Assembly: GCA_964486505.1 (NCBI GenBank)
Contig: CAZAMC010000001.1
Location: 106,133 to 170,132 of the forward strand
Direction of reading: 5' to 3'
Length of the DNA: 64,000 nucleotides
Origin: an uncultured Gammaproteobacteria bacterium
GTDB taxonomy: Bacteria; Patescibacteriota; Patescibacteriia; PEXW01
Part shown: in pieces, positions 45,365-64,000 of the stretch
How positions within the stretch are numbered: position 1 is the first letter of the stretch
How the letters are laid out: each line of letters starts with the position of its first letter
The notes under the pieces: generated by a model
The model's input: the letters and a program-made list of their open reading frames with translations, nothing else
What the model was told of the DNA's origin: nothing
The model's database searches: none
Program-made: the position numbers and the translations under genes

Positions 45365-45724
45365 CTAAAACCCTGCGCAACCCGCATCATGCAAGCTCCT
45401 CGTCGATTCGTAATACGGAACGCGAGTAAAGTACCAGATAGCGAATAGAACAATGACGCCAACCAGAAGCAGAAGCACCGCTGGGTAGAGGTACTTCAGC
45501 ACCTCCTTTATTTCTACAAGGGCTGCTTGATTCTCTGGTGATTGCGGGTTTCTGGTTACAAAGCGTTTTCGGACTTCAAAGAATGCCAGCGCGAAACAGG
45601 CTAAGAGGAAAAACATGCTCAGTGCGAGCAGTCCGTAAAGGGAATACGTTGCCACCGCTGAGTCCTCCTGAATTCCCCAGGTTTCGCAGAGCATCCCGCC
45701 GACGTTCTCAATAGTTACTGCCAT
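45365..45724 (-). CDS. Hypothetical small membrane protein
   Basis: Two to three TM helices. 119 aa. Confidence 0.35.
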   Translation of the reverse strand: MAVTIENVGGMLCETWGIQEDSAVATYSLYGLLALSMFFLLACFALAFFEVRKRFVTRNPQSPENQAALVEIKEVLKYLYPAVLLLLVGVIVLFAIWYFTRVPYYESTRSLHDAGCAGF

Positions 45725-45810: not shown

Positions 45811-45843
45811 AAAAACAAGAAGTGGGTTAGACTTCTTGTTTTA
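45811..45843 (-). terminator. Intrinsic terminator immediately after the fatty-acid-hydroxylase gene
   Basis: 10-bp stem AACAAGAAGT/ACTTCTTGTT with a 7-nt loop. Flanked by an A-tract and a T-tract (bidirectional-looking). Confidence 0.55.
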
Positions 45844-46671
45844 CCGAATGAGCGAGGTAGCCTTTGCCTCTCGTTTCCTGGCCCAGGAATCCAGCCAGCG
45901 GACAAAACGCCGGGGCGGCGCAACCTGGAATTCATCTGCAGTGGCCAGCCGACCTTCGAGCAAGAGCCGTTTGGGGAAGTGGCAGGTGCCAAAGAGCCAG
46001 TCGAACACCGGCAGACCAAAGAAGCCACTAATGGTTTCGTTCACGTTCACGTTGGCATGGTGGAAGTGATGGAAACCGTAGACTCTCTGCCAGAGCCAGC
46101 CGAAGTGCCGATGCTCTACGGCGCGTTTCCACCACGCGTAGGGGTAGTGCTCCACGGCGTGGAACACTTCGTAGCTGACCATTGACCAGGTGATTGCAGC
46201 GTAGCCACCCAGGATGACCGGTGCGTGTGGTAAGCAGAGCTGCACGCCAATGAGCAGCGGCGTGAACAGCGCCCAAAAGCTGAGCAGCGCGTACCACGGG
46301 AACGCCGAAGCTTCAAACTGCGTCCCTTCCACAATGGGGTAGCGGTTTAGGACAATGCGTCCGGGGCCCGCTTCATTCTTGCGGAGCCGAATGGGCGTGA
46401 GGCTATGGTGCAAACGGTGATCCTTTGCTAATTGCTTCGCCCACGAAAATGGCGCAACGTGGAGCACGTACCGGTGGAAGCCCCACTCGAACAGGGAGTT
46501 AAACAGGTGCATGACCAGGAAGACGAGGCTGAACGCGCCAAACCCGGCCGTCACTTGAGTCTTCCAGATTCCGGGGAACGCATACGCTATGCCAATGAGG
46601 AGCAAGAGCAGCTGGACGCAGACGAAAAGGAGGAACCACCGAATCGAGAAGCGTTTACTGTGCGTTGCCAT
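45841..46671 (-). CDS. Fatty acid hydroxylase / sterol desaturase superfamily integral membrane protein
   Basis: Histidine boxes HRYVLH, HRLHH and HHFHH in a 4-TM protein. Confidence 0.7.
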   Translation of the reverse strand: MATHSKRFSIRWFLLFVCVQLLLLLIGIAYAFPGIWKTQVTAGFGAFSLVFLVMHLFNSLFEWGFHRYVLHVAPFSWAKQLAKDHRLHHSLTPIRLRKNEAGPGRIVLNRYPIVEGTQFEASAFPWYALLSFWALFTPLLIGVQLCLPHAPVILGGYAAITWSMVSYEVFHAVEHYPYAWWKRAVEHRHFGWLWQRVYGFHHFHHANVNVNETISGFFGLPVFDWLFGTCHFPKRLLLEGRLATADEFQVAPPRRFVRWLDSWARKREAKATSLIR

Positions 46672-46810
46672 GGAGTTACCTCCGAGGTTTCAGGTTATAA
46701 AGGTGTCACATATTCATGCAACCCGCTGCTGTAATTACAGAGCGAGAAGTGTGTATTTTTCTGTTTCGTGAGTATAGGCGAAACCCACCCGAAAAACAAT
46801 TCTGGTAATT

Positions 46811-47395
46811 CTACAGTTCAGTAACTTCCTCGCACTTAACCAACTTACTATTTAGAAAGGCAATGACCTGTTCTCTTGCTTCCATTGGAATGTGGAAACC
46901 AAAAGCAAACTGCGGTGGCCGTTCTGGATGCTGGACACTTTCCTTGTGAAAAATTTGTACACGTGGAAGCTTGAGATTTTCATCACTAATATGGGGCTGC
47001 AAAGCAGTTGTTATTGCAAAGTACTTATAATTTTTCCACATTCGTTTTTCATTGGGTGGTTCTATCATCGTCACCCCTTCATCATCAAAAAGTATTTTTC
47101 TATACCGGTAAGCTGTGATTTCCGCATTACCAATAAGAGTAATAAAACCAAAGACACAGACGGCACCAACCATGAGGAACGCTGCAAATGTGAAATCTTT
47201 CCATGTTGCGTACACTTGGTACGCAATATAGAGCGCTACGGGCGCCAAGGTTATCATAACCCATTTGTTTGGCATCCATTTGGGTAGACTTTTCTTCTTT
47301 GACGATGTGGATCCCAAAGTCAGCAACAAACCCCTGGGAGTCTTTTCTATGGACCCGGTAACTTTTGGTGTGAACTGTATGTTTGCATCACTCAT
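46811..47395 (-). CDS. Hypothetical membrane protein (2 TM + C-terminal soluble domain, possibly bacterial PH-like)
   Basis: TM hairpin (VMITLAPVALYIAYQVY / FAAFLMVGAVCVFGFITLI) followed by a ~110 aa domain. PH-like call is weak inference. Confidence 0.45.
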   Translation of the reverse strand: MSDANIQFTPKVTGSIEKTPRGLLLTLGSTSSKKKSLPKWMPNKWVMITLAPVALYIAYQVYATWKDFTFAAFLMVGAVCVFGFITLIGNAEITAYRYRKILFDDEGVTMIEPPNEKRMWKNYKYFAITTALQPHISDENLKLPRVQIFHKESVQHPERPPQFAFGFHIPMEAREQVIAFLNSKLVKCEEVTEL

Positions 47396-47451
47396 AATGG
47401 CCTCTTTATACTACTCTTCTGAAAATATCCAATGTAGACAACATTTACTCC

Positions 47452-48129
47452 TCACTCCTGAAAAAATATCGCCATGACAAACGAAAATATCGCAAGAAGC
47501 CCCATAAATACAAAAAATGCGATGCGAAAGTACTTCCCCGATGGTCGCAACTTACCCGTGATATTGGAGCTATGGCGTATACCATGTGCTTGTAGCCATG
47601 CTGTAGCTTGTGTATGCATGTCGGCATTCGCGTACACTGGCACGCTCCAAGCACTACCACGCAACTTTAAGTAAATCACAGTAAGTGGCAGCTTCCCTTC
47701 TTCCTGGGTATCAGCGGCGATTTTTCGGACAGTAGCTGGTTTGTACACCGAAAGAGAGTTATCACCATACAACGAATACCACCGTATGTTTTTGAGCGGA
47801 ATGGTGCGGGTACGGTTATCTTGCAGGATTTCTACTGCATCGGGTCGAAAAGTATACGTCGCTTCTGCCACCCCACCCCGCTTGCGGAAGGCCAATACTA
47901 ACAGTACGCACGCGATTGCCAAAGGCAAGAGAAACCAAAGGTAAATTGGATCTTGCGAAGCAGCGTAGATGCCTATAGCAAGAGTGAGGAAAAAAGCCGA
48001 AACGAGTACTCGCAAACCTTGGTAGCTACTGGCGCCTCGCAGCGCAAGGTTCTCGCCTTTCAGGTACTTCCAAGTAAGTGTGTCATTCATGTCGTTATTG
48101 TACCATTCGTCTCCGAATAAATCGTACAA
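47452..48129 (-). CDS. Hypothetical membrane protein (TM hairpin + soluble domain + C-terminal TM)
   Basis: LRVLVSAFFLTLAIGIYAA / LWFLLPLAIACVLLVLAF, then soluble region, then C-terminal FRIAFFVFMGLLAIFSFVMAIFF. Confidence 0.45.
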   Translation of the reverse strand: MYDLFGDEWYNNDMNDTLTWKYLKGENLALRGASSYQGLRVLVSAFFLTLAIGIYAASQDPIYLWFLLPLAIACVLLVLAFRKRGGVAEATYTFRPDAVEILQDNRTRTIPLKNIRWYSLYGDNSLSVYKPATVRKIAADTQEEGKLPLTVIYLKLRGSAWSVPVYANADMHTQATAWLQAHGIRHSSNITGKLRPSGKYFRIAFFVFMGLLAIFSFVMAIFFQE

Positions 48130-48340
48130 CCCCCACTATACCCAGAATGCCCAGTATCACCCCAATCCCCTGCGCCCCTGGGCTGTCATCATAGCCGCCG
48201 TACACCACCATGAACGCCCCGAACAGTATCGCCAAAATGGATAACCCGATTCGCGTCTTTCTATGCATAGGAGCTACATACTTCCTTTCATTTCTTCCGC
48301 TATATCTCGTCTGCCTCTTCAATCTAGCTTCGACAGCCAC
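48095..48340 (-). CDS. Hypothetical small membrane protein
   Basis: 81 aa. Two TM helices with GxxxG-like packing (GVILGILGIVGVV). Confidence 0.35.
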   Translation of the reverse strand: MAVEARLKRQTRYSGRNERKYVAPMHRKTRIGLSILAILFGAFMVVYGGYDDSPGAQGIGVILGILGIVGVVRFIRRRMVQ

Positions 48341-48588
48341 AGCTTTCTAATAGAAGTCAGGGACACCGTTGAGAGCAAGTAGCCAATTGCCGGAACGAAC
48401 GCGGCTAAAAACGGTCGACTACTTTTTATGATGAGTAGCCACAGCAAGGCGAAGATGTAGGTAACTACTGTCACAAACCCACGCCGTACCCACGACGTTT
48501 CCCACGCTTTGTCCGCTTCCACGCGTTCATTGCGTTGCTGGATCTCCACAAGTTGTTTTTGGAGGTCTTCCATGGGCATTCTATACAT
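48319..48588 (-). CDS. Hypothetical small membrane protein (2TM-like)
   Basis: 89 aa. N-terminal helical region then two TM helices. Confidence 0.35.
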   Translation of the reverse strand: MYRMPMEDLQKQLVEIQQRNERVEADKAWETSWVRRGFVTVVTYIFALLWLLIIKSSRPFLAAFVPAIGYLLSTVSLTSIRKLWLSKLD

Positions 48589-48964
48589 GGGCCTCCAAAA
48601 AAGCCTTCAATGCACCGAGGTCTTTTGCGTCCTTATCGTAGTGGTACGTGGTAATACCCACAGACTTCGCGCTCTCCACGGCTTCAGGGTTATGCTCAAA
48701 GTACACAACGTCCGCTGCGTTTAGCTGGTTCGCCTGAAGCATGGTCTTATAAAATACTGGGTTCACTTTGTCGGGATTGTGCTTCAGCGTGAACACGGGG
48801 TACGGAACCTTGTCCAGACCAAACTCCACCATCTGCTCATCATTGGCATTGGTCAAAATAATCTTCGGGTTAGGGTAAGTATCCAAAAGCTTTTGCATTG
48901 CAACATTAATCCCCTGCCCTTCGATAATAAACGTATTGTAAGCGTCAACGAGAATGGTTTTCAT
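48581..48964 (-). CDS. Small HAD-like hydrolase domain protein
   Basis: KTILVDAYNTF (DxY/D motif I-like). C-terminal VYFEHNPEAVESAKSVGI resembles HAD motif III/IV. Confidence 0.45.
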   Translation of the reverse strand: MKTILVDAYNTFIIEGQGINVAMQKLLDTYPNPKIILTNANDEQMVEFGLDKVPYPVFTLKHNPDKVNPVFYKTMLQANQLNAADVVYFEHNPEAVESAKSVGITTYHYDKDAKDLGALKAFLEAHV

Positions 48965-48966
48965 AG

Positions 48967-50280
48967 TTACATTTTCGATAGTGCTACTACCTTAGGACTT
49001 CCATCCTGAATATAAAAACCGTCGTCATTCCTAAGTAATTGCCCTGGATCATTTCTATCAATTTTGAATATCTGAAAACTCACTGTATCGTTGTCCAGCC
49101 ATGTAACGACGCCATCGGCAAGGTAACACCCATGACCACACGACAACACACCATCAGCCTCAGCGTACTCAAATACCAGTTCCTGGCGCTTGAGCGTTAT
49201 AAAGTCATACACATAGAAAAGTGCTTTGGGCTCATCCCCTGAAATTGGGGTTTCCTTATCAAGCTCAGCTTCAGAAGTTGTGAATTCAATTGCTTTTGTA
49301 TGGTCGGGAGAAAGCACAAGATTTGGTAAATATGGAATTGTCCAATCTACGCCCTTTTTAACGACTTTGCCTGAATCTGTCTTCAGCGTCAGGTATGGAC
49401 CGTTGAATATGCACCCACCGCATCCGGCTCCGCCCCGAAAGAAGAAAGTAATTTCATTATTCTTGTCATAACGAAACCATTCGTCTGCGGCTTCGCCTAT
49501 GCTTCTAATACTATCATTAAACTTTGCGCCAGGATTCGTTTTACCAAATTCTCCCGAAGTAATTTGGCTATGAATTGTTTTATCAAAAACCCTAACCTTC
49601 TTTCTATACAAGCAGCTATTTACTATTGTGTAATCTTCTTTAGAGATTTCTTCTTCAAGAGTTAATGCGCAGTTTTTTGGACGCGTATACTGCTCATCCA
49701 ATTTCTTTGACTTATAATCATAGGCACAGCCATCATTCACTACCCAATTGGCATAGGGGTCATAAATATTATTTCGTTCAGCAAGTATTTCTTTTGGGCA
49801 AATTTGCTCAAGTATTCCTGGATTACTAGCAATATAATCATATTTTTTTTCCGTTTTCGTTTCTTCGCAGGTATAACCACTCAATGTTAGAGTTTTACCT
49901 TCTGGGCAAGTACATTGTTCACGTGCCATTTTTTTTGAAGAGTCCCATGTGCCCCCGCTGTAAAGGCAATTACTATAAACATAGTTGTCTCGGCATGTCT
50001 TAAACACCCTATCCGATGTACAAGAACCGTTTTCGCATTTGCTAGGCCCATACATTCCAAAGCAATCTAGCCTGGCTGTACATGTTTGCTCATCAAGAAT
50101 TTTAGAGCAGGTCGGTGAGCTTGCATTCACGTTGACTTGCTCGTTTGATTGAACGACAACTTGATTCACAGCATTACTTACCATCTTTTGTTTATGCCAA
50201 CTCCAATACCCTAGATATGCAATACCAAGGCAGCCAGCAACGGCGAGGACAAGAACTAAAATTCGTGGAGTAAGCTTCAT
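48967..50280 (-). CDS. Cysteine-rich secreted or anchored protein
   Basis: N-terminal signal/anchor LVLVLAVAGCLGIAYLGYW. About 30 Cys in a 437-aa extracytoplasmic region. No family recognised. Confidence 0.5.
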   Translation of the reverse strand: MKLTPRILVLVLAVAGCLGIAYLGYWSWHKQKMVSNAVNQVVVQSNEQVNVNASSPTCSKILDEQTCTARLDCFGMYGPSKCENGSCTSDRVFKTCRDNYVYSNCLYSGGTWDSSKKMAREQCTCPEGKTLTLSGYTCEETKTEKKYDYIASNPGILEQICPKEILAERNNIYDPYANWVVNDGCAYDYKSKKLDEQYTRPKNCALTLEEEISKEDYTIVNSCLYRKKVRVFDKTIHSQITSGEFGKTNPGAKFNDSIRSIGEAADEWFRYDKNNEITFFFRGGAGCGGCIFNGPYLTLKTDSGKVVKKGVDWTIPYLPNLVLSPDHTKAIEFTTSEAELDKETPISGDEPKALFYVYDFITLKRQELVFEYAEADGVLSCGHGCYLADGVVTWLDNDTVSFQIFKIDRNDPGQLLRNDDGFYIQDGSPKVVALSKM

Positions 50281-50425
50281 AAATAGGTGGATATGCCCTC
50301 TTGTTCACACAGTATAATTCTTTGCTTTTCTCTCGTATACCCCCTAGAAATCCCCTTACAACGTTGACAGCGCATAATGAACTATGTAGTGTGCATGTAA
50401 ACTAAAAACAAACGATGGAGGTTGA

Positions 50426-50941
50426 ATGCACTTTAAATTCGGCGGTTTTGACACTTCTGCACTGTACGGGATTCTCGATGCTGTGGAGAAAAGCTTCATC
50501 ACCTTGTTCGAGCTGGATCTCCAAAATCCTCCGCGTCACCAAGGTGGCTTCTTCACCCTACGGGACGGCAAAACCGGAGACATTCTTATCGCTATCCAAG
50601 TTGGAGAAGTACCCCGGAAAGACCGCATGAAATGGTACCACCTAAGCCTGGAAAAAGGTGATCGACTCTTCCGAACATGGCATAAGAGCAGAATCGAGAG
50701 ACACCTCACGAGCTCGGAATCACGTGACCCAACACAAAACAAATTCGGCGGCGCGGTTATTGCCACAGAAGGTAAGTACCCGTACATTCTCTCGTTTCAC
50801 GGTCTGGGCGAAGAGCCTGATGAAGCGTTGATGGTCGCAACAGCCTTGAAGCTCCGCTGGATGTCTGCAGACATCGCACAGGAAATTGCTACCGCGTACA
50901 AAAATACTACGGCCCGCAATTTGCAGAAGCTCATGAGCTAA
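50426..50941 (+). CDS. Hypothetical protein (divergently transcribed, strong RBS)
   Basis: GGAGG 5-6 nt upstream of ATG. 171 aa, soluble. No family recognised. Confidence 0.45.
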   Translation: MHFKFGGFDTSALYGILDAVEKSFITLFELDLQNPPRHQGGFFTLRDGKTGDILIAIQVGEVPRKDRMKWYHLSLEKGDRLFRTWHKSRIERHLTSSESRDPTQNKFGGAVIATEGKYPYILSFHGLGEEPDEALMVATALKLRWMSADIAQEIATAYKNTTARNLQKLMS

Positions 50942-51024
50942 TACTCGCCCGACAGCGAACCAAGATCAGCCAGAAATGGTTGATCTTTTCTATAGTCTGT
51001 AACACCTACAACTGTATCGCGTTC

Positions 51025-51348
51025 TTAAAAGTCCTTCGTAAACTTACACTTCGGGTAGTTCGTGCATCCAAAAAACGGCCCATATTTGCCGCTCCGTTCT
51101 AATAAATTCCCACCACACTGTGGGCATTTTTGATTCTGTGCCATGGTTGTTGCCTTTTTCGATTTTCTAAACAAACGAAACAATCCCTTTTCCAGCTTTG
51201 CAATCGCCAGAGTTAAAAGTACCGCCGCAATGCCCCCAATAACAAGCCATGGCAACATCGTTCGTAATGTTGATTGCGCTAGGAACCCAGCAGCATTCAC
51301 GAGTTGTGGGTCTGCGGCCATTCTCTGTTTATTTCTTAAATGACACAA
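51025..51348 (-). CDS. Small membrane-anchored protein with C-terminal topoisomerase-type C4 zinc finger
   Basis: TM LPWLVIGGIAAVLLTLAIA then CPQCGG...YGPFFGCTNYPKC (zf-C4_Topoisom pattern). Confidence 0.55.
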   Translation of the reverse strand: MCHLRNKQRMAADPQLVNAAGFLAQSTLRTMLPWLVIGGIAAVLLTLAIAKLEKGLFRLFRKSKKATTMAQNQKCPQCGGNLLERSGKYGPFFGCTNYPKCKFTKDF

Positions 51349-51760
51349 AGAATGGTATATCGTTCATCTGCACATAGTTAAACATCCAATACCCAGCACG
51401 TCGTGCCCGTTTAGAAAGCTGATGCTTTAGAAGATGCTTTTTAGGGACAAAGGGATAGAAACGAATTTCTTGCTTCCTTTTCTGTTTTTCTATCCATTTG
51501 AAATTTAGAAAAAGCGGCGGCACCATATATCCAGACTTAGTCACCTTATCCATTATCTGCCAGCCTGCGCCAAACACAATATTACTTGGCTTGCGGTTGT
51601 TAGTCTTTACCTGCGCCCGAAAAGAACAACCAGTGCACTGCACATCATAAAGCGGATACCCTGTCGGTAAACACATAAGCTTCTTGCCACAATTCGGACA
51701 AGGTACGTACTTAACTACCTCTAATTCCCCTTGTTTTCCAGATGCTTGGTTTCCTGCCAT
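51329..51760 (-). CDS. Hypothetical zinc-ribbon protein
   Basis: CPNCGKK...CTGCS CxxC-x19-CxxC ribbon at the N-terminus. Basic C-terminal half. 143 aa. Confidence 0.45.
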   Translation of the reverse strand: MAGNQASGKQGELEVVKYVPCPNCGKKLMCLPTGYPLYDVQCTGCSFRAQVKTNNRKPSNIVFGAGWQIMDKVTKSGYMVPPLFLNFKWIEKQKRKQEIRFYPFVPKKHLLKHQLSKRARRAGYWMFNYVQMNDIPFFVSFKK

Positions 51761-51805
51761 GACCTCATTAGATCATGGTCAAACATCTTACGCAAGAAAA
51801 AAACT

Positions 51806-52897
51806 TTACTTACCAGCTTTGGTTCGGTTGTCTTCTTTGCACAACATCTGGCAATTTTCTGCTATTGTCTTGCCGCCCTCATGCCAAGGAGTTACGTGAT
51901 CAGCTTCCATCTCCGATATGTCATACTTTTTTTTGCAGAATGGGCAAATGGCCTTTTGTCGCTCATACGCTTCGCGCTTCATCTTGTCGGTAAATGCACG
52001 AATAGAAAGATACTTATCTTGCCTAGTTAAAATATATGGATAAATACCGGACTTTTTTGTGACGTCTTCATCTTGCATTAACTCCTTTACTTCGATTTCT
52101 AACTTTACTGCGTTTAATTTCCTTTCTTTATATTTATTAAATAACTCACCCCAATTTACATTCGACATTTCTTTTCGGTAATAGGGAAATGACTTGCGTA
52201 CCCAAGCAATCACGTCTTGAAAGTACTGCCATAATTCATCAGCGTTTTTATTGTGCTGGTGCTTTGCCATATAGTCTTCAATCTTGCCCTCATTTATCCA
52301 CGACAGGGCAGTTTCCAAATATTCTTGCCGTATTGGAGAACCGCTAAGCAACGGTCCGTCATCATTTGCTATATGATATGCAACACAGCCCGTCTTACTA
52401 AACTTGAGTTTCGCATCTGAAAGCCATGGGCCGGTATAAACTGCGTTGCGGATTTCTTGATCGGTTAATTTTTCTCCGGCAATATTGATAATTCTGAACC
52501 AGTCCAATCGTTCTTTATCCGTGCCTTCGCAAAAGTAAATCATTAGTTGGTAATCTAAAATCTGATCTTGTTCTTCCTTTAGAAGATTGTGAAAGTACCT
52601 TTCATCTAAGGAAAAATCGCCATTCACGAATTGACCGATACTAATTGTTCGCTGTTGACCATCCAGCACTTCATACCCGCCGTCCTCACGAACCATCCAG
52701 TACATAACATTAAGCGGAAAATTCTGTTTTACTGTTTCAAGCACTGCATTGCGTTGCTTATCCTTATAAACGAATTCACGCTGATATTTAGGACGAATAT
52801 CAAGTTTGCCACTGTAGGCAACCACACCTTCCTCGGCGCTATCTTTATAACCAGCGACCACTTCACGAATTGAAATTCTATGTAAATCAATTTTCAT
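51806..52897 (-). CDS. DUF262 (ParB/Srx-like) + HNH endonuclease fusion (GmrSD-like architecture)
   Basis: N-terminal RPKYQREFVY and VLDGQQRTISIGQF are DUF262 signature motifs. C-terminal CPFCKKK...ADHVTPWHEGGKTIAENCQMLCKEDN is a canonical HNH. Confidence 0.75.
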   Translation of the reverse strand: MKIDLHRISIREVVAGYKDSAEEGVVAYSGKLDIRPKYQREFVYKDKQRNAVLETVKQNFPLNVMYWMVREDGGYEVLDGQQRTISIGQFVNGDFSLDERYFHNLLKEEQDQILDYQLMIYFCEGTDKERLDWFRIINIAGEKLTDQEIRNAVYTGPWLSDAKLKFSKTGCVAYHIANDDGPLLSGSPIRQEYLETALSWINEGKIEDYMAKHQHNKNADELWQYFQDVIAWVRKSFPYYRKEMSNVNWGELFNKYKERKLNAVKLEIEVKELMQDEDVTKKSGIYPYILTRQDKYLSIRAFTDKMKREAYERQKAICPFCKKKYDISEMEADHVTPWHEGGKTIAENCQMLCKEDNRTKAGK

Positions 52898-52899
52898 AA

Positions 52900-54009
52900 T
52901 TAAATCTTTCGTTTTCGAATTACTATTCTAAAATATGTATACCTTTTGCCATTATCTATTGAACACATATGCCTTCCGATCCTATTATTTCCTCTATTAA
53001 GTATAAGCTTGTCATGATCAAATAATTGATAACGATTTAACGCATTTACAATTTCAAATTGCTTAGGGTTATACTTGTCAAGAAAGGTAATGGGCACGCC
53101 CATAGCGCCATAAAAGTTTTTTGGTATCTCGTTAACAACATTTACATTAATAGCATCGTAGTTATCGAACTTTTGAAATTCGTCGGTGGTATAGGTCTTA
53201 TAAAGGTCCAGCTTCTCGTGACGCTTTACAGTATCTAAATTTGTAAACCAATTGATGGCCGGAACCTTAACATAGCCTTTGTCTGGGTCATACCCTTTTC
53301 CGATTACAAACTTTCTATTTGCCTCAAGATTATTTACATAGGGAGTCTTATAAACGACGGACATATTAAAACCGTAACCTGACCAAATTTTGTTCTCTTT
53401 TATCAGTCTAAAAATTTCTTTATAGGTAATGGCATTCATATTGCCTAAGATCAAAAACTTCTTATTATTTCCTACGAGCTGCGCAACATACTCACGAAAG
53501 AGAGAAAAAGGAGGGTTGGTTACAACAATATCTGCATGTTTGAGGAGCGCAACACATTCATCACTGCGAAAATCGCCGTTACCACTAAGCGGTATAGAAG
53601 TGTTTTTATCGTGCTTAAGCAATTGCTCAACGTCTTCAAGACTAATAGAGCCATTTTTATTTATGTCCTTCACTTCATTAATTTCAATTCTGTACGCTTC
53701 GGCACCTTTAGGTTTTATTGACTTCAAACCTTCCATTTTAAACAATGGCAACTGCTTGCCCGCAATAGGTGATTTTTTGTAGCTCGTAGTAACAAGTTTT
53801 TTCAATCTAAGGGCATTAAAGTTTGCAGCAAAATACTTGAAGAAGTTACTTTCAAATGGGTCGTCACAATTACAATAAACGATCTTCCCACGAAACTGAT
53901 CTTTATAGTGTTTCAATTCTTTTTCAACATCAACTAGCTGAGTATAAAACTCATCCTTTTTCGCATGGTTAGCTTTGCGTAAGCCCTTGTTTGAGGACTT
54001 TGTGGCCAT
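52900..54009 (-). CDS. N6-adenine DNA methyltransferase, EcoRI-methylase-like family
   Basis: DEFYTQL...KIVYCNCDDPFESNFFKYF N-terminal block and catalytic VVTNPPFS motif IV. Large C-terminal putative target-recognition region. Confidence 0.7.
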   Translation of the reverse strand: MATKSSNKGLRKANHAKKDEFYTQLVDVEKELKHYKDQFRGKIVYCNCDDPFESNFFKYFAANFNALRLKKLVTTSYKKSPIAGKQLPLFKMEGLKSIKPKGAEAYRIEINEVKDINKNGSISLEDVEQLLKHDKNTSIPLSGNGDFRSDECVALLKHADIVVTNPPFSLFREYVAQLVGNNKKFLILGNMNAITYKEIFRLIKENKIWSGYGFNMSVVYKTPYVNNLEANRKFVIGKGYDPDKGYVKVPAINWFTNLDTVKRHEKLDLYKTYTTDEFQKFDNYDAINVNVVNEIPKNFYGAMGVPITFLDKYNPKQFEIVNALNRYQLFDHDKLILNRGNNRIGRHMCSIDNGKRYTYFRIVIRKRKI

Positions 54010-54059
54010 AATATCGATTAGGGATGAATGCTGCTAGTGTATTACGACTCCCCTAAAAA

Positions 54060-55853
54060 TCAACTCAATTTCTGCTTAACGAGTTTAGCTACATCCCTCG
54101 CAGAATCCTTACTAATCCCCCCAAACCCAGCATTAAACAAACGTCCAGGCACCCATATCCCCTTCACGCCCTTCTGTAAAAGTCTTTTCCAAAGATCCCA
54201 GTCCTGGTACCGCTTTAGGCTCTCATCAAAGCCAATGCAGTGCTCACGGCGGAGGAGGGACATTGTTGAAATGTAGTTGGCTTTTAGCAAGCGCTCGGGG
54301 TTGAAGTCGAAGAGGTCAAACGTATGCCAGCCGAACTTGAAGTCAGAATACGCATAGCCAGCTTCGGGGTGCAGAAGGAGGGCGCGGGCCATGCTCTCTA
54401 ACATAGTCGGCTGCAGCTGCACGTCGGCGTCGCAGTAGAGCACGAAGTCCCCGGTTGTCTTGGCAAACCCGGCATTGCGCGCGCTGGGGGCGCCTTTGTT
54501 TTCTTGGCGGATGAGCTGCACATTGAACTTCTTAGCGATTTCGGATGTGTCGTCTGTGGAACCATCATCAACCACCACAACTTCAAGCGGTTTTAGGGTT
54601 TGCGCGTTGAGGCCGTTCAAGGTTGTGGCAATGGTCTTGGCACTGTTGAACGCCGGGATAACAACGCTAACCTTTACCTTTGGGACGGTGGCAACCGTGT
54701 TCAAGAGTTCAGCGATGCGTGCGCGGCGTGTGTCCCAGCTGAACTGCTCTTTAGCAAACTTCTTGGCGCGGTCGCTGTACCGCTGAATCCGCAACGGGTC
54801 TTTGAGAAACGGTTCAATTGCTTTGGCAATTTCATCGGCTTCCCCGGGTTCAACCAGCTCACCAGTGAGGCCGGGTTCAATGGTCTCGGGTATGCCCCCA
54901 GTGTTGCTGGCAATCACGGGCAGGCCGTGGGCCTGGGCTTCCACGCTCACCAAGCCAAAGCCTTCCACATCGCCTCGCTTCCCTTCGAAACTCGGAAATA
55001 CAAAGAGGTCAGCCGCGGCATAGGCAACGTTCGTGTCTTCCACGTTATTCAGGACGTGAATGCGCTGTTCCAGTTTGTGCGTAGCAATCCGCGCCCGGAT
55101 GTTCCCCTCTTCGGCACCCCGGCCCACAATGAGGTAGTGCACGTGTGGGTACTGCGGCGCCAGCCACGCTACCGCATCAATTGCCAGCACGTGGCCTTTG
55201 CGCTCCACCAGCCGGCCCACCGTGAGCAGGATGTGCGCGTCCGCCGGCAGGTTGAGGGTTTTGCGGGCTTCGGTCTTCACAATCCCCTGCTCGGGAACAT
55301 CAGCCCCGGGGGTAAGGACAACTCGTCGACTTTCGGCTACGCCAAGGCGCTTGAGGTGCTGGTTAGTGAACTTGCTGTTCGCAACAACGAGGTCGGCTTG
55401 CCGGAGGTTCTTCCGCAGCATCCGGCGGCGCAAACCCCCGGCCGTGTCGTAGCTCAACACATCCATGCCGTGCGTAATGACCACCACCTTGGTGCCGTAG
55501 AGCTTGCGGCAGCGCAAAGCCGCCGCCAGGTAGGGCCCGTAGTGGCCCAGGACAATGACGTCGTAGTCATGCTTCTGTGTGAGCGCTGCAAAGCGGCGAT
55601 AGGTGCCCAACCACCGCGGCCGCAGTTTGCCGGTGAGCAACGGCTGCCGAATGAGCTTCCAACCGGCAACGACGCTCGATCCCGGTTCGGTGAGCACGTC
55701 CACGTTAACATCATGCCGCTCACCAAAGAGGTGCGCCAGAAACCGCTCTACCCCGCCGTAGGCGGGTAGGAACGTGGTCGTAACGAGGAGGACGCGCATG
55801 GTTTTATGCTGGACGCCTTCGAATAATCCGCCAGAGAGCCGAAAGCTCTTCAC
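54060..55853 (-). CDS. Bifunctional glycosyltransferase: N-terminal GT4 (group 1) fused to C-terminal GT2
   Basis: N-terminal MRVLLVTTTFLPAYGGVE and EGFGLVSVEAQAHGLPVIA. C-terminal KVSVVIPAFNSAKT...VVVVDDGSTDDT and CDADV. Confidence 0.8.
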   Translation of the reverse strand: MKSFRLSGGLFEGVQHKTMRVLLVTTTFLPAYGGVERFLAHLFGERHDVNVDVLTEPGSSVVAGWKLIRQPLLTGKLRPRWLGTYRRFAALTQKHDYDVIVLGHYGPYLAAALRCRKLYGTKVVVITHGMDVLSYDTAGGLRRRMLRKNLRQADLVVANSKFTNQHLKRLGVAESRRVVLTPGADVPEQGIVKTEARKTLNLPADAHILLTVGRLVERKGHVLAIDAVAWLAPQYPHVHYLIVGRGAEEGNIRARIATHKLEQRIHVLNNVEDTNVAYAAADLFVFPSFEGKRGDVEGFGLVSVEAQAHGLPVIASNTGGIPETIEPGLTGELVEPGEADEIAKAIEPFLKDPLRIQRYSDRAKKFAKEQFSWDTRRARIAELLNTVATVPKVKVSVVIPAFNSAKTIATTLNGLNAQTLKPLEVVVVDDGSTDDTSEIAKKFNVQLIRQENKGAPSARNAGFAKTTGDFVLYCDADVQLQPTMLESMARALLLHPEAGYAYSDFKFGWHTFDLFDFNPERLLKANYISTMSLLRREHCIGFDESLKRYQDWDLWKRLLQKGVKGIWVPGRLFNAGFGGISKDSARDVAKLVKQKLS

Positions 55854-57306
55854 GTTTCACACCTTTAAGGACAATGAGCCCGGCCACGTAGATGACGGCG
55901 AAGAGCACTGTCCAGCCCAGCACGTCTGCACGGCGGCCCCCCACGAACACCGGGAAGGCGTTGCGGAACGGGAAGATGAGCAAACTGGCAATGAGGGCGG
56001 CGCCATACACGCGCAAGATGCGGGAAATCAGCCGCTGCCACGGCACCGTAATGACGTTCCGTACCCAGTACATGCCCATGCCAAACAGCACCGTACCGCT
56101 CACCAGAGTGGCGGCCGCAGCGCCCATGTAGGAGAAGCGCGTAATGAGCAAGGCGTTGAGGGAGATGTTCACCAACACGGTCACCGCCATGCTCACGGTG
56201 TTGTACTTGGTGCGGTTGCTGGCATTCAGCAGGGTGCCCACGGGGAAGTTCATGAAGATGACGGGCAAGCTCAAGATGAGGATGCGCAACGGATCGGCCG
56301 AGGCCGCGAAGAACTCGTTGAACGCCAAGCCCACAAAGCTGCTGGCCAGCACGAAGATGCCCAGGGACATGGGTACACTGAGAATCATCATGTACACAAT
56401 GGCGCGCTCAAACGTATCGGCCAGTTTCTCTTTGGAGTTGATGTAGAAGTTGCTCATGGCCGGATACAAACCGGCGGCAAAAGCCGAGGGCAGGAATTCC
56501 AAAGCAAAGGTGAGCTTGTGCGCCACGGCGTAGAAACCCACGGCATCCCGGCCCTTCTGAATGAGGAGCAAGTACCGGTCGGTGTACGTGTAGACCTTCA
56601 CCAGCATGGCCGCAATGGCGAAGGGCAGAGCCATTTTGAGGAGCTCCTTAATGAGCCACACGTCCCACTGCAGACGGGGCCACACTTTGGCAAAGCGCCG
56701 TAAGGAAAAGGTAGACCAGGCAAAGTTGGCCACCGAACCCAGCAACGTGGCAAAGAAAATCCCGCGCAGCCCCAGGTCCAGGCGCAGCGTGGTGTAGCCA
56801 ATGCCGACCGCTAAAACTTGGTTGAGGATCATACCCATGGCCTCGAACTTCATGTTCTGCAAGCCCCGCAGCACGGCAAAGAACGTGAGCGTGAACGTAT
56901 CGAAGCCCACGATGAGCGCCACCAGGTACAAGGACGACTGCACGTCCTGTGAGAAATTACCAAAGTTGGTGACGAATCCAAAAGCCGTCATCACCACCAG
57001 GGTGAAGAGCAACTTCAGGCCCAGGACGTTCCCCAGGATAGACTTCAGGCGCTGCGGCGAGCGCGCAATTTCACGCGTGACCACCTGCGAGAGCGAGAAG
57101 TCAATGAGGATGAGGGCAATGGGGATAAGCGATTTCAGCGGGTCGTACTCGCCGCTGCGGGAGACGCCAATGTGATTGACGACCACCGTGTAGTACAAGA
57201 ACGAAATAATTTTCTGCAGCACAAAGGCCCCCGTGAGGTACGAGGTATTCCGGAGAATCTTCGACTGGCCGGCATTCACTTCGGTCGTAGGTTCGACGGT
57301 GGCCAT
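55804..57306 (-). CDS. Wzx-like polysaccharide flippase (MOP superfamily)
   Basis: About 12-14 TM helices. Polysacc_synt-like N-terminal pattern (ILRNTSYLTGAFVLQKIISFLYYTVV). Start at MATVEP chosen to limit overlap with rpsI. Confidence 0.7.
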   Translation of the reverse strand: MATVEPTTEVNAGQSKILRNTSYLTGAFVLQKIISFLYYTVVVNHIGVSRSGEYDPLKSLIPIALILIDFSLSQVVTREIARSPQRLKSILGNVLGLKLLFTLVVMTAFGFVTNFGNFSQDVQSSLYLVALIVGFDTFTLTFFAVLRGLQNMKFEAMGMILNQVLAVGIGYTTLRLDLGLRGIFFATLLGSVANFAWSTFSLRRFAKVWPRLQWDVWLIKELLKMALPFAIAAMLVKVYTYTDRYLLLIQKGRDAVGFYAVAHKLTFALEFLPSAFAAGLYPAMSNFYINSKEKLADTFERAIVYMMILSVPMSLGIFVLASSFVGLAFNEFFAASADPLRILILSLPVIFMNFPVGTLLNASNRTKYNTVSMAVTVLVNISLNALLITRFSYMGAAAATLVSGTVLFGMGMYWVRNVITVPWQRLISRILRVYGAALIASLLIFPFRNAFPVFVGGRRADVLGWTVLFAVIYVAGLIVLKGVKREELSALWRIIRRRPA

Positions 57307-57356
57307 GGGTCGGGACGGGTTGGAAGGCTGACGAGAAACGCCAGCAGCAGGGCGCT

Positions 57357-57956
57357 TTAGCGCTTCTGCCACTGCGGCGCGCGGCGGGCGCGCTTGAGGC
57401 CGTACTTCTTGCGCTCCTTCACGCGGGCATCGCGCGTGAGGAAGCCGTGGGGCTTAATGACCGCCCGAAGAGCCGGATCCAACAGGATGAGCAGGCGAGC
57501 AATACCGTGGCGAATGGCGTGCGCTTGGGCGTGCTTGCCACCACCCTGAACTTTAATAGACCAGCGGCCCTGCGCCCAGCCAGTTGCCGCGAGCGAGCCC
57601 TTGGCTTCATCCACCCAGGGGGTGTAGCCGAAGTACTTCTCCAGGGTCATGCCGTTTACCTGCATTTCACCAGTACCCAGCTTGTAGTACCGCACCCGAG
57701 CAATAGCGGTCTTGCGCTTACCCACGCTCGACATGTACTCCTCACGCTTGATCGCGTCGGGTACAACTGCAGCGACCACAACGTGCGGCTTGGCATCGTG
57801 CGTGACGGTAGGCTTGGCGTGAACGGCCTTGTGCACGGCGGCCTTGTGGGGCGCGGCCTTTTTGACAGCAGGTTTCCCGCCGCGACTCGATGCGTGCGGC
57901 GAGGCGGGCTTGGCAGCCTTCTTGGCAGCGGGTTTCTTGGTGGTCTTGGTAGGCAT
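57357..57956 (-). CDS. rpsI: 30S ribosomal protein S9 with ~70-aa Lys/Ala/Pro-rich N-terminal extension
   Basis: C-terminal 128 aa is canonical S9 (GKRKTAIARV...KKYGLKRARRAPQWQKR). N-terminal is basic low complexity. Confidence 0.9.
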   Translation of the reverse strand: MPTKTTKKPAAKKAAKPASPHASSRGGKPAVKKAAPHKAAVHKAVHAKPTVTHDAKPHVVVAAVVPDAIKREEYMSSVGKRKTAIARVRYYKLGTGEMQVNGMTLEKYFGYTPWVDEAKGSLAATGWAQGRWSIKVQGGGKHAQAHAIRHGIARLLILLDPALRAVIKPHGFLTRDARVKERKKYGLKRARRAPQWQKR

Positions 57957-57960
57957 GGCT

Positions 57961-58326
57961 TTACGGTTGGACAGTGAGGCGCTTGAGGATGAACTTGCGG
58001 GTGCGGTTGTCGGGCAGCATGCGCTTCACCGCGAGGGTGAAGAGGCCAACCGGATCTTTCTCCAGCTTCTCCTTAAAGCTCGTCTGGCGCAAACCGCCGG
58101 CGTAGCCCGAAAAGTGCGCGTACATTTTCTGGTCGAGCTTGCGCCCGGTCACCAGAATTTTTTTCACGTTGGTAACAATGACTTTCTCACCAGAAATCAC
58201 ATCCGGCCGGAAGGTGGGCAAGTGCTTCCCCCGCAGCGTGGCGGCCACGTGCGAGGCCAAACGGCCCAGCACTTTACCAGAGGCGTCAATGGTAACGGTC
58301 GTAGATGGTGGGGTAGGTTTGCGCAT
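57961..58326 (-). CDS. rplM: 50S ribosomal protein L13
   Basis: IDASGKVLGRLAS...HFSGYAGG... is canonical L13. Confidence 0.9.
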   Translation of the reverse strand: MRKPTPPSTTVTIDASGKVLGRLASHVAATLRGKHLPTFRPDVISGEKVIVTNVKKILVTGRKLDQKMYAHFSGYAGGLRQTSFKEKLEKDPVGLFTLAVKRMLPDNRTRKFILKRLTVQP

Positions 58327-58329
58327 ACG

Positions 58330-58677
58330 TTACACGAGTTCAAGAATGGCCAGCTGCGCGCGGTCACCTTGGCGCTGGTTGGCCAGGATACGTCGCGTGT
58401 AGCCGCCCTTGCGGTCCTTGTACTTGGGGGCGATGTCGGTGAGGAGCTTCTGCGCCGCCGGTTCAGTAAAGCTTTGCAGAAGGGTGCGGCGGGCGCTCAG
58501 GTCACCGCGCTTGGCTGTGGTTATGGCGCGCTCCACGAGCGTGCGAACCGCGCGGATCTTCGCCACCGTGCTGGTCACGCGGCCGTTAAGCACAACGCTG
58601 ATCGCCAGGCTACGGAGCATGGCGTTGCGCGGGGCGGCTTTGCGATCGAGAGTGGGACGGGTCTTGCGGTGGCGCAT
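58330..58677 (-). CDS. rplQ: 50S ribosomal protein L17
   Basis: MRHRKTRPTLDRKAAPRNAMLRSLA and GGYTRRI motifs. Confidence 0.9.
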   Translation of the reverse strand: MRHRKTRPTLDRKAAPRNAMLRSLAISVVLNGRVTSTVAKIRAVRTLVERAITTAKRGDLSARRTLLQSFTEPAAQKLLTDIAPKYKDRKGGYTRRILANQRQGDRAQLAILELV

Positions 58678-58683
58678 GGGAAA

Positions 58684-59451
58684 TTACTCTTCAGCTTCCT
58701 TGTCCTTCTTCTTCGTAGATTTCTTTTTCGCCGGCTTTGCTTCCTCCGCTGGGTCGGCATCGGCAGGAACGGAGGCGAGGAGGTGCTGGAAGTGCTCGGT
58801 GAGAATTTGGGCAGCTTCGCGGAACGCCGCGGCGGGGCTTACGGTTCCGTCCGTGCGGATAGTAAGAGTCACCTTGTCGTAATTGGTCATCTGACCAACG
58901 CGGACGTTCTCCACCCGGAAGTTCACTGTGCGAACGGGCGTGTAAATGGCATCCACGGCAATCACGCCCAAGTCCAGGCGCTCCTTCTCCCGCATTTCCA
59001 CTGGGATGTAGCCGCGACCCACGCCGACGGTGAGTTCCATTTCCACATCGGCATTCTTGTCGGTGAGGTGACAAATGACGTGCTCCGGATTGCGGATTTC
59101 CACGTTCGAAGGGCACTTCAGGTCACCGGCAGTGAGCACTTTTTCGCCCTTCGCCTTCACCATGATGGTGGCCGTCTCACCTTCGAACATCTTCAAGCGT
59201 ACGCCCTTGAGGTTGAGAATGAGGTCCACCATGTCTTCCTTCACGTGCGGGAGAGTGGTGAACTCGTGCGTGGCACCGTTAATTTTCACCGCCGTAATGG
59301 CCGCGCCGGGGAGGGACGACAGCAGCACCCGCCGCAAGGCATTGCCCAGGGTGGTACCGTAGCCGGGGTAGCACGGTTCAATGACGACGTTGGCTTCGTG
59401 CTCACCGCTTTCGGTGAGGCTAATCTTCGAGGGCAGGGCGATGCGTTCCAT
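58684..59451 (-). CDS. rpoA: DNA-directed RNA polymerase alpha subunit, N-terminal domain only (no alpha-CTD)
   Basis: Canonical alpha-NTD (GYGTTLGNALRRVLLSSLPGAAIT...). Protein stops after ~230 aa plus a K/E-rich tail. rplQ follows within 7 nt. Confidence 0.85.
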   Translation of the reverse strand: MERIALPSKISLTESGEHEANVVIEPCYPGYGTTLGNALRRVLLSSLPGAAITAVKINGATHEFTTLPHVKEDMVDLILNLKGVRLKMFEGETATIMVKAKGEKVLTAGDLKCPSNVEIRNPEHVICHLTDKNADVEMELTVGVGRGYIPVEMREKERLDLGVIAVDAIYTPVRTVNFRVENVRVGQMTNYDKVTLTIRTDGTVSPAAAFREAAQILTEHFQHLLASVPADADPAEEAKPAKKKSTKKKDKEAEE

Positions 59452-59472
59452 AGGCGTGAGGGGGTAAAAGGT

Positions 59473-60081
59473 TTAGCGGGAGTAGTACTCAACTATGAGC
59501 TGCATGTTGAGCGGTTGGTTGACATCGGTGGCTTCCGGCAAACGGCTGACCGTGCCGGCGAGCTGTTCCACGTTGCGCGTGAGCCAGCTGGGCGGGTCTT
59601 CGTGTGCGCCCTTCAAGCGCTCGGCAATCTGGGTACGGAACTTCGCTTTGTCCTGAATGCTCACCACGTCCTTGGGCTTCACGTTAAAAGACGGGATGGT
59701 TACCTTGCGGCCGTTCACCTTCACCAGGCCATGGCTCACAAACTGGCGCGCTTGGCTGTGCGTGGTGGCAAAACCCAAGCGGAAGACGGTGTTGTCTAGC
59801 CGGCGCTCCAAAAGTTGGAGCAAAATCTGCCCGGTGTTGCCCTGCTTGCGCTTGGCCCGCTTGAAGTAGTTTTCAAATTGGCGCTCCAGTAAACCGTAGA
59901 TAATCTTGGCCTTCTGCTTCTCGGCGAGCTGAATGCCGTACTCCGAAAGACGCGGCGTACCCTTGGGGCCGTGCTGGCCAGGCGGGTAGGGCCGACGAAC
60001 GACAGGGCACTTCGCCGAGTCGCAGAGCTTCACGCCGTAACGGCGGCAACGAGTATGTTTGGGTCCTGTGCGGCGAGCCAT
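59473..60081 (-). CDS. rpsD: 30S ribosomal protein S4
   Basis: MARRTGPKHTRCRRYG zinc-ribbon-like N-terminus and S4 domain (RRLDNTVFRLGFATT). Confidence 0.9.
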   Translation of the reverse strand: MARRTGPKHTRCRRYGVKLCDSAKCPVVRRPYPPGQHGPKGTPRLSEYGIQLAEKQKAKIIYGLLERQFENYFKRAKRKQGNTGQILLQLLERRLDNTVFRLGFATTHSQARQFVSHGLVKVNGRKVTIPSFNVKPKDVVSIQDKAKFRTQIAERLKGAHEDPPSWLTRNVEQLAGTVSRLPEATDVNQPLNMQLIVEYYSR

Positions 60082-60090
60082 ACGAGAGAG

Positions 60091-60570
60091 TTAAACGCGA
60101 CGAACTTTCGGCTGGCGCACGCCATTGTGCGGAATGGGCGTGACGTCTTTGATAGATGTAATTGTTAGGCCCATGCCCACGAGGGCACGAATGGCGGCTT
60201 CCCGGCCGCTGCCAATCCCCTTCACGCGCACGTCCACCTGCTTGAGGCCAACGTCGCGAAGCTTTTCCATGATGCTGCGCACCACCACGCCGGCGGCGTA
60301 GGGAGTGCCCTTCTTGGGGCCGCGGAAACCTTGCGCGCCCGCCGAACCCCAGGCCAAGACGTTCCCGTTCTGGTCGGCGATGCTCACAATGGTGTTGTTA
60401 TAGGTTGCTTGAACGTGCGCTACGCCGTGCTGCACAAACTTCTTGCCCTTCTTGGCGCGCTTCTTCTTGGGCTTCGCACCGTCAGCGGCCTCGGCCGGCT
60501 TGTCTTCGGCGGCGGGCGCGGGGGCGACTTTGTCCAAGAGTTCTTCGACGTTCTTTGTATTGTCAGCCAT
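60091..60570 (-). CDS. rpsK: 30S ribosomal protein S11 with ~40-aa A/K/E/P-rich N-terminal extension
   Basis: GVAHVQATYNNTIVSIAD...GFRGPKKGTPYAA...VRVKGIGSGREAAIRAL. Confidence 0.9.
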   Translation of the reverse strand: MADNTKNVEELLDKVAPAPAAEDKPAEAADGAKPKKKRAKKGKKFVQHGVAHVQATYNNTIVSIADQNGNVLAWGSAGAQGFRGPKKGTPYAAGVVVRSIMEKLRDVGLKQVDVRVKGIGSGREAAIRALVGMGLTITSIKDVTPIPHNGVRQPKVRRV

Positions 60571-60575
60571 ATGCG

Positions 60576-60965: not shown

Positions 60966-60969
60966 AGGG

Positions 60970-61083: not shown

Positions 61084-61085
61084 GG

Positions 61086-63924: not shown

Positions 63925-64000
63925 GGCCGCAGTGTAGCGGAAATGGCTTGACCTGGCGAGGGTCAGCGGTCGCTGCGAACGGCGGGTTTTTCAGGCTTTG

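Follow-up and report, generated by a model that had tools for sequence, protein, structure and literature searches.

We analysed a tract of low G+C content (GC) at positions 46,680 to 54,055 of a 64-kb stretch of contig CAZAMC010000001.1 from an uncultured bacterium; the whole 64-kb stretch is called the window below. Our reading, to which we give a probability of about 0.65, is that the tract is a composite variable region of unrelated pieces, and neither one mobile island nor one defence system. An earlier reading of the sequence alone had taken it for a single 7.4-kb island inserted between a fatty-acid hydroxylase gene and a glycosyltransferase gene, with a layout of nuclease, methyltransferase and membrane protein genes that could not be assigned to a named defence system. 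The single insertion was not borne out: the GC at third codon positions (GC3) is a mosaic, the genes form at least two transcription units, and a gene inside the tract (i225) is syntenic with a gene outside it (mem119) on L044, the one contig of a relative that was found. The remark on the layout was correct, because the restriction-modification (R-M) pair appears to be self-contained and travels alone, and the membrane and secreted protein genes never accompany it elsewhere. The layout is that of a known R-M cassette, a most likely solitary DpnI-like nuclease (Dpn143), a small gene (i171) and an unrelated envelope operon (Table 1).

The sharp drop in GC was confirmed by sliding-window GC and by tetranucleotide usage. 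In windows of 500 nt, GC is 0.56-0.59 over 46.0-46.7 kb, drops to 0.35-0.51 within the tract and is back at 0.52-0.62 from 54.0 kb on, the remainder of the window lying at 0.50-0.61. Against a background of 100 windows of 1.5 kb (GC 0.551 ± 0.019), the tract windows have GC z scores of -3.5 to -9.8 and tetranucleotide-distance z scores of 2.4 to 12.4. The deviation is largest at 52-54 kb, has a second peak at 48.5-50.5 kb and is much weaker at 47.5-49 kb. Both transitions lie about 100 bp or less from 46,680 and 54,055, and the edges coincide with the start codon of the hydroxylase gene (46671) and the stop codon of the gene for a GT4-GT2 fusion glycosyltransferase (54060). The contrast looks so sharp partly because the flanking hydroxylase, glycosyltransferase and flippase genes have GC3 values of 0.70-0.79, above average and comparable to 0.73 for the housekeeping gene of alanine--tRNA ligase. 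A sharp GC trough of this kind is not necessarily the trace of a single insertion event.

As described earlier, the tract holds eleven open reading frames (ORFs), of which only one lies on the plus strand and the other ten are minus-strand genes. Their foreign composition was supported for about half of them, most strongly for the methyltransferase (MTase) and restriction endonuclease (REase) pair. Compared with the 51 other genes of the window (mean GC3 0.594, standard deviation (SD) 0.056, minimum 0.495), six tract genes (i437, MTase, REase, i194, Dpn143 and Zn107; 0.35-0.44) have z scores of -2.7 to -4.3 (-4.1 for MTase) and all fall under the host minimum. The other five (i225, i81, i171, i89 and i127; 0.50-0.60) are within the host range, with z scores of -1.7 to +0.1. 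The outliers are scattered and form no single block; along the left operon the order is one low gene, four host-like genes and one low gene. GC1 and GC2 are likewise low in the tract genes. Overall, the GC and tetranucleotide usage of the tract deviate, yet GC3 is host-like in 5 of the 11 genes.

Table 1. Genes of the low-GC tract and of its flanks, with positions in the window. TM, transmembrane.
Gene	Position	Strand	Description	Match or prediction	GC3
mem119	45365..45724	-	flank gene outside the tract	39% identity, E 1e-26, to L044:1630-2010	
hydroxylase	45841..46671	-	His-box membrane hydroxylase-like protein, left flank	NF047868, E 3.6e-83	
i194	46811..47395	-	single-TM ORFan		0.415 (z -3.2)
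i225	47452..48129	-	3-TM membrane protein	one relative (P0136)	0.50
i81	48095..48340	-	2-TM small membrane protein	TM prediction, weak Pfam matches only	0.54
i89	48319..48588	-	2-TM small membrane protein	TM prediction	0.58
i127	48581..48964	-	short HAD-like ORF, degenerate motifs	sub-threshold HAD matches	0.60
i437	48967..50280	-	N-terminal anchor, 19 Cys, extracytoplasmic		0.354 (z -4.3)
i171	50426..50941	+	soluble, only plus-strand gene of the tract		0.57, host-like
Zn107	51025..51348	-	TM helix (31-49), then topoisomerase-type C4 Zn ribbon	PF01396, E 3.9e-15	0.444
Dpn143	51329..51760	-	143 aa, Zn ribbon and PD-(D/E)XK fold, D39...Q50-x-K52	PF06044	0.424
REase	51806..52897	-	DUF262 and HNH endonuclease, 363 aa, presumed cognate Type II REase	PF03235, PF01844, PADLOC REase_II	0.396
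MTase	52900..54009	-	EcoRI-family N6-adenine DNA methyltransferase, 369 aa	PF13651, E 7.8e-133	0.365
GT4-GT2	54060..55853	-	fusion glycosyltransferase, right flank; MTase starts 50 bp downstream of its stop codon	Pfam	

The absence of mobility genes from the tract, reported from the sequence alone, was confirmed. Pfam, NCBIfam, PADLOC and PHROG searches found no integrase, transposase or relaxase domain in the eleven proteins, there is no tRNA in the 64-kb window, and no direct repeats above chance bracket 46.68 and 54.06 kb. A search of the window with Rfam gave no match, and counts from promoter and terminator scans were no different from the shuffled expectation.

At the right end of the tract, the two genes that had been named as an EcoRI-family MTase and a DUF262-HNH nuclease were upheld as such. 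The MTase matches PF13651 over nearly its full length (residues 10-366 of 369, profile positions 2-344 of 345), and motif IV can be read in the translation as NPPF. The REase gene starts 2 bp downstream of the MTase gene on the same strand. Its product consists of a DUF262/GmrSD_N domain of the ParB/Srx-like type (PF03235, E 4.3e-17) with the motif DGQQR, followed by an HNH domain (PF01844, E 4e-10; the C-terminus also matches PF14279), and it gave no DUF1524 match at E <= 0.1. It aligns end to end with the PADLOC REase_II model PDLC03418 (E 5.6e-134, residues 1-362, profile positions 1-371 of 372), and it also matches NsnA and PD-T4-2 in their DUF262 domains.

Homologues of the REase are widespread on plasmids. 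A tblastn search with the REase found 44 plasmid records that cover at least 80% of the protein, and the best of them, from Chryseobacterium, Macrococcoides, Aeromonas, Mammaliicoccus, Sulfitobacter, Variovorax, Gordonia, Dietzia and Lactiplantibacillus, are 48-63% identical. The plasmid homologues span four phyla (Bacteroidota, Bacillota, Pseudomonadota and Actinomycetota), and a further homologue with 62% identity was found on one human-gut phage contig. In 6 of the 7 plasmid loci that were opened, an EcoRI-family MTase gene lies directly upstream on the same strand; these six include a Chryseobacterium plasmid (L003, NZ_CP034172.1) in which the MTase is frameshifted. The pair also occurs in three metagenome loci (L064, L116 and L120), and two further truncated loci show the MTase only. 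No other tract gene accompanies the pair in the seven plasmid loci, and the membrane and secreted protein genes of the tract were never found with it in the seven plasmid and three metagenome loci.

The two genes therefore read as a self-contained and promiscuously transferred Type II R-M cassette. Known examples are found on Aeromonas caviae p1 (WP_202154987.1/WP_202154986.1) and Sulfitobacter indolifex pDSM14862_g (WP_243254695.1/WP_243254696.1). The cassette in the window shares with these both protein families, the MTase-then-REase order, the strand and the near-abutting or overlapping genes, with 48-63% identity for the REase and 42-52% for the MTase. It differs in that it is chromosomal, in an uncultured bacterium of about 55% GC, and is followed by a DpnI-like gene. 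The REase is predicted to recognize and cleave an unmethylated site that the MTase would protect. Our literature search returned no characterised or named enzyme of the DUF262-HNH/EcoRI-MTase type and no recognition site, and palindrome-avoidance statistics over the 64 kb gave nothing decisive as a pointer to the R-M site. NCBI labels the REase homologues on many plasmids only as "DUF262 domain-containing protein"; together with an adjoining EcoRI-family MTase, such entries become readable as R-M cassettes.

Downstream of this pair lie the two proteins that had been described as zinc-ribbon proteins. That description held for Zn107, which carries a topoisomerase-type ribbon, whereas the other, Dpn143, proved to be a nuclease domain of the DpnI family with a PD-(D/E)XK fold. 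Dpn143 matches PF06044 (E 5e-10, 39.8 bits against a cut-off of 26.7, profile positions 28-151 of 183) and the PADLOC model mREase_II for methyl-directed Type II enzymes (E 5e-7). The AlphaFold (AF2) model has a mean confidence (pLDDT) of 87, and the sole significant PDB match in Foldseek is DpnI (4kyw_A, E 6e-6, TMq 0.73). In the alignment with DpnI (4esj), the catalytic D and K correspond to D39 and K52 of Dpn143, and the position of the catalytic E is taken by Q50. Some active PD-(D/E)XK enzymes have a D-QxK variant. Across 44 aligned family members, all of 142-150 aa, D39, Q50, K52 and the four zinc-ribbon cysteines (CPNC with Cys42/Cys45) are invariant.

R.DpnI, a Type IIM enzyme that depends on Gm6ATC (m6A, N6-methyladenine) and belongs to the "Dam-replacing family" (PF06044; 4esj/4kyw), thus resembles Dpn143 in its zinc-ribbon-bearing PD-(D/E)XK catalytic domain, in the aligned active-site D and K and in the predicted fold. 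The differences are also clear. Dpn143 has 143 aa instead of 254 aa, its chain ending before the C-terminal winged-helix domain with which DpnI reads m6A, and it carries an invariant Q in place of the catalytic E. The two proteins share only about 20% identity, and Dpn143 belongs to a tightly conserved family of its own in uncultured lineages. This family has at least 1,395 homologues (clusters), nearly all of 142-146 aa and 65-76% identical, with members in Omnitrophota, WS5, Nanoarchaeota and CPR-like genomes (CPR, candidate phyla radiation). A tblastn search with Dpn143 against plasmids and phages gave no match, and scans of viral contigs with i437, Dpn143 and i171 found no relatives. Dpn143 is most likely a solitary nuclease, and by analogy with DpnI it possibly cuts foreign m6A-methylated DNA. 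In the host part of the window (1-46680 and 54055-64000), GATC is the most under-represented palindrome of 4 nt (102 observed, 135 expected, z -3.7), a mild depletion that is the only hint, and at most a hint, of Gm6ATC-dependent cleavage by Dpn143. The next most under-represented palindromes are AGCT and CTAG. We found no experimental characterisation of this mini-DpnI family in the literature.

The genomic surroundings of the family were examined in a metagenome scan, which gave 388 Dpn143 relatives, of which 80 loci were kept. The ORFs of 84 loci and of the window were clustered, and Pfam was run on the representatives and on 148 immediate neighbours from 81 further Dpn143 loci. The Dpn143 gene was called in 82 loci including the window. 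Among the neighbours with an annotation, genes for restriction and other defence functions predominate, MTases of other families among them: type I S subunits (8 loci) and R subunits (3-5 loci), Fic (5 loci), SocA antitoxin (5 loci), an EcoRI-family MTase (6 loci, the window included), Eco57I-type enzymes (4), PDDEXK_1 (3 loci), GIY-YIG (3), Pycsar-type TIR (2), and MmeI, AlwI and Zeta toxin (1 each). Genes for TspO and DNA polymerase III gamma are met repeatedly as well. In many loci Dpn143 adjoins PDDEXK_1, DUF2726, GIY-YIG or DUF262-HNH proteins and R-M systems that contain an m6A MTase. On long contigs the Dpn143 homologue is variously flanked by DnaJ and PDDEXK_1 genes, next to an Eco57I-type IIG enzyme together with a DUF2726 protein, preceded by an HTH and HNH pair, or surrounded by hypothetical genes.

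One neighbour is an HNH protein of about 233 aa, found in 8 of the 82 loci. Its gene is directly downstream in L056, L060, L084, L089, L098, L119 and L122 and on the opposite strand in L094, and in the loci that were checked it overlaps or abuts the stop codon of the Dpn143 gene. This suggests a two-nuclease operon that is distinct from the arrangement in the window. In L064, L116 and L120, MTase and REase are co-oriented with Dpn143 in the order MTase-REase-(x)-Dpn143 or Dpn143-MTase-REase. The Dpn143 loci have GC values of 0.30-0.49 (median 0.39), as against 0.55 for this host, which fits a defence-neighbourhood gene that may have been imported from a lower-GC lineage with or beside the R-M pair. 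Like defence islands, the right part of the tract brings together two or three adjoining nuclease-based immunity genes of foreign composition, and Dpn143 relatives lie among type I/II R-M, HNH, TIR and toxin-antitoxin genes. It differs from them in its size of only 3 kb, in having no mobility genes, and in adjoining a membrane operon that no evidence links to defence.

The small protein Zn107 is not a conserved partner of Dpn143, since it was found beside a Dpn143 homologue in none of the 84 loci. The arrangement of R-M pair, Dpn143 and Zn-ribbon gene recurs with 98-100% identity in two Logan runs (L001 and L033) and is thus stable in the source population; the locus is carried by runs SRR14932662 and SRR14932695. 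Apart from Zn107, the proteins common to the window and L001 are 100% identical. In L001 (4304-4600), Zn107 was called as 98 aa (51025-51321), without an overlap with Dpn143 and with one residue different.

Beyond Zn107 lies i171, which is convergent with Zn107 (gap of 83 bp) and divergent from i437 (gap of 145 bp). Because of this orientation, the remaining tract genes fall into two minus-strand transcription units. The i171 protein gave no Pfam, NCBIfam, PADLOC or PHROG match and has no PDB relative by profile, and its family comprises about 400 clusters (at 50% identity) of proteins of about 160 aa. A motif-based guess that it is GlcG/DUF336-like was rejected: neither i171 nor 10 of its relatives matched Pfam. 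Relatives of i171 were found near Dpn143 homologues in 2 of the 84 loci (L072 and L040), in one of them convergent and directly downstream as here. The closest relative is on a contig of 926 bp, whose context is uninformative.

The left unit (46,811-50,280) consists of six overlapping or abutting genes in the order i437, i127, i89, i81, i225 and i194. The claims of small membrane proteins and of a 437-aa Cys-rich secreted protein were both sound: TM helices are predicted in i194, i225, i81 and i89, and also in the 107-aa Zn107, and i437 has an N-terminal anchor and 19 cysteines. Only 9 relatives of i437 were found among 5.8e9 proteins, with neighbours unrelated to this locus. Their alignment shows a conserved C-terminal domain of about 290 aa with invariant GAGCGGC, NGPY and PYLP motifs. 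The AF2 model of i437 (pLDDT 50) gave only weak beta-propeller-like matches in Foldseek (TMq < 0.2) and is not interpretable. The HAD-like nature of i127 stands less firmly, as its matches stay below threshold (HAD_2, E 0.016; TIGR01509, 26 bits against a cut-off of 29 bits). A possible origin of i127 as a duplicated piece of the flanking HAD gene (HAD219) was discarded, there being no BLASTP similarity between them. One homologue of i89 (40% identical, L034:5621-5884, candidate division WS5) lies 4 kb downstream of a Dpn143 homologue, and i89 is the only membrane gene of the tract seen near any Dpn143 relative.

Exhaustive phmmer searches of 1.84e9 representatives found only i194 itself for i194 and a single relative, P0136 (66% identical), for i225. 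P0136 starts at the residue aligned with M14 of i225. Since the sole relative starts there, and since this start removes the overlap with i81, the true start of i225 is probably the ATG at 48090 (M14), not the TTG at 48129.

The contig of P0136 (L044, 4.1 kb, GC 0.48, from run SRR22388340) carries, in this order, the i225 homologue, a 182-aa TM protein and a homologue of mem119. The mem119 homologue is thus two genes from the i225 homologue with no hydroxylase gene between them, and the 182-aa protein, which takes the slot of i194, has no similarity to i194. By this conserved order, i225 inside the tract and mem119 outside it appear to be ancestral neighbours, so that the left edge in composition probably does not mark an insertion boundary. 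The hydroxylase gene may itself be a separate acquisition, because it is absent between the two homologues in L044. The left unit as a whole resembles an envelope locus that is specific to the lineage and in which cassettes turn over.

The flanking gene called a fatty-acid hydroxylase gave no Pfam match at E <= 0.1, and the NCBIfam family that it matches, NF047868, is a TrhA extension/companion domain. Its 28 species-level relatives (at most 63% identical) are labelled Ca. Eisenbacteria, Kerfeldbacteria or Patescibacteria group, and most of them are in metagenome-assembled genomes of 0.65-0.75 GC. Taken with the short form of the alanine--tRNA ligase encoded in the window, these labels suggest that the host is CPR/Patescibacteria-like. 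An exact look-up of the hydroxylase sequence found it not on record.

We propose that the segment 51,025-54,009 forms a mini defence cluster that was gained by horizontal transfer. In this scheme, the EcoRI-family enzyme would methylate the adenine (N6) of its target site on host DNA, and the DUF262-HNH enzyme would cut incoming DNA that does not carry that methyl mark. Dpn143 lies beside this pair, and if it cuts foreign m6A DNA it would complement the pair; the membrane-anchored Zn-ribbon protein follows it in the cluster. The separate gene i171 would end the defence unit by convergent transcription. The segment 46,811-50,280 would then be a tightly packed six-gene envelope operon with its own divergent upstream region. 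It would mix lineage-native genes (i225 and probably i81, i89 and i127) with outliers or orphans (i437 and i194), the former being regarded as native because of the synteny of P0136 on L044 and their host-like GC3. Such a mixture resembles what cassette turnover would leave in a cell-surface locus that evolves fast. The activities, the target site and the methyl-dependence of Dpn143 are predictions in this scheme, as would be any order of acquisition. No link between the nuclease/MTase pair and the membrane block was found. That a mobile Type II R-M cassette should land in a variable, envelope-related region of an uncultured bacterium is biologically unsurprising.

Several observations weigh against this composite origin. 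The synteny of i225 and mem119 comes from one contig, L044, which is only 4.1 kb long and distant (39-66% identity), and a metagenome scan with an alignment of mem119 found nothing. The 28 hydroxylase relatives share no window neighbour within 10 kb, and they provide no comparison of the right border. GC3 is noisy for short genes of 81-127 codons. In 6 of the 82 loci, an EcoRI-family MTase is encoded at most four genes away from Dpn143 and invariably shares its strand, so that Dpn143 may be functionally tied to the R-M pair and not merely co-located with it. The mode of action of the REase is itself not certain, DUF262 domains being best known from modification-dependent Type IV enzymes. On an 8.6-kb plasmid of Enterococcus dispar (L127, NZ_CP116586.1), an intact REase homologue beside optrA has no MTase. 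This copy and that of the Chryseobacterium plasmid with the frameshifted MTase are odd, because a classical Type II REase is expected to be lethal when unprotected.

The last two points would be accommodated if the DUF262-HNH protein were a modification-dependent nuclease of Type IV, similar to GmrSD or SspE, with the MTase marking self DNA to license or stimulate it or acting as an independent orphan; SspE, for instance, is stimulated by host phosphorothioate. The plasmid copies with a missing or frameshifted MTase suggest that the nuclease is not lethal alone, and the REase has matches to NsnA and PD-T4-2 in their DUF262 domains. In addition, the DUF262/ParB-like NTPase domain with DGQQR is a hallmark of GmrSD, BrxU and SspE (PMC4619093, PMC12707154, PMC12065111), in which it is likewise N-terminal and followed by a His-Me finger nuclease. 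However, the C-terminal domain here is a classical HNH (PF01844) and not DUF1524, the protein has about 360 aa as compared with about 600 aa, and it aligns from end to end with a model that was made for Type II REases. GmrSD, BrxU and SspE are solitary, whereas 6 of 7 plasmids and all 3 complete metagenome loci have the MTase directly upstream of the REase, as for a cognate pair. We consider the Type IV interpretation unlikely, while giving it more weight than the alternatives that concern the tract as a whole. Among these, a single 7.4-kb genomic island, with all eleven genes from a low-GC donor and the mobilisation genes lost or elsewhere, would account for the contiguous tract, its sharp edges at gene boundaries and the nearly uniform gene orientation, and the tract proteins that were looked up are singletons at 90% identity. 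It is nonetheless improbable given the mosaic GC3 with five genes indistinguishable from the host, the synteny of i225 with an outside gene, the occurrence of the R-M cassette and of Dpn143 elsewhere without the remaining genes, and the lack of an integrase, tRNA or direct repeats.

Still less credit is given to two further interpretations. If the tract were a new multi-gene defence system, the MTase and nuclease would sense or mark DNA and the membrane and secreted proteins would be effectors, for example in abortive infection via membrane damage; the genes are indeed co-oriented and tightly packed, and no membrane protein matches a known family. But no membrane or secreted protein gene accompanies MTase, REase or Dpn143 in the 7 plasmid or 84 Dpn143 loci, the exceptions being the i89 homologue at 4 kb from a Dpn143 homologue and the i171 relatives in two loci. 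Moreover, the tract is split by i171, on the opposite strand, into distinct transcription units, and the relatives number only 9 for i437 and none for the ORFan i194, which makes such a system very improbable. To an equal degree we doubt that nothing in the tract is foreign, its low GC then being due to the amino acids that make up membrane and secreted proteins, and to relaxed selection in a variable surface locus. The low GC1 and GC2, the five genes with host-like GC3 and the absence of mobility genes would agree with a native tract. It is contradicted by six genes with GC3 2.7-4.3 SD under the 51 host genes and below their minimum, by tetranucleotide z scores that reach 12, by the fact that plasmids and a phage contig from unrelated phyla carry the closest R-M relatives, and by the Dpn143 relatives in genomes of 0.30-0.49 GC.

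Within the composite region that we favor, the mini-DpnI family, abundant and extremely conserved, is the only element worth experimental work. Tentatively, and with clearly less confidence than in the composite origin, the family may be a minimal modification-dependent nuclease, or a reader/nuclease partner of a variable second nuclease, and form a widespread immunity module of microbes with ultra-small genomes. If so, functional coupling would be reflected in the position of Dpn143 beside an EcoRI-family R-M pair, which it has in the window and, always co-oriented, in 5 further loci. Small solitary nucleases of this kind may form a meaningful part of immunity in CPR/DPANN-type organisms, because these, to our knowledge, mostly lack CRISPR.

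Two minor observations concern the rest of the window. The gene at 12311-13582 has the lowest GC3 of the background (0.495), with a local GC dip to 0.51, and may be another, milder compositional outlier. The alanine--tRNA ligase encoded at 62080-63924 is of the short PRK01584 type (about 600 aa), a form that is typical of reduced genomes.

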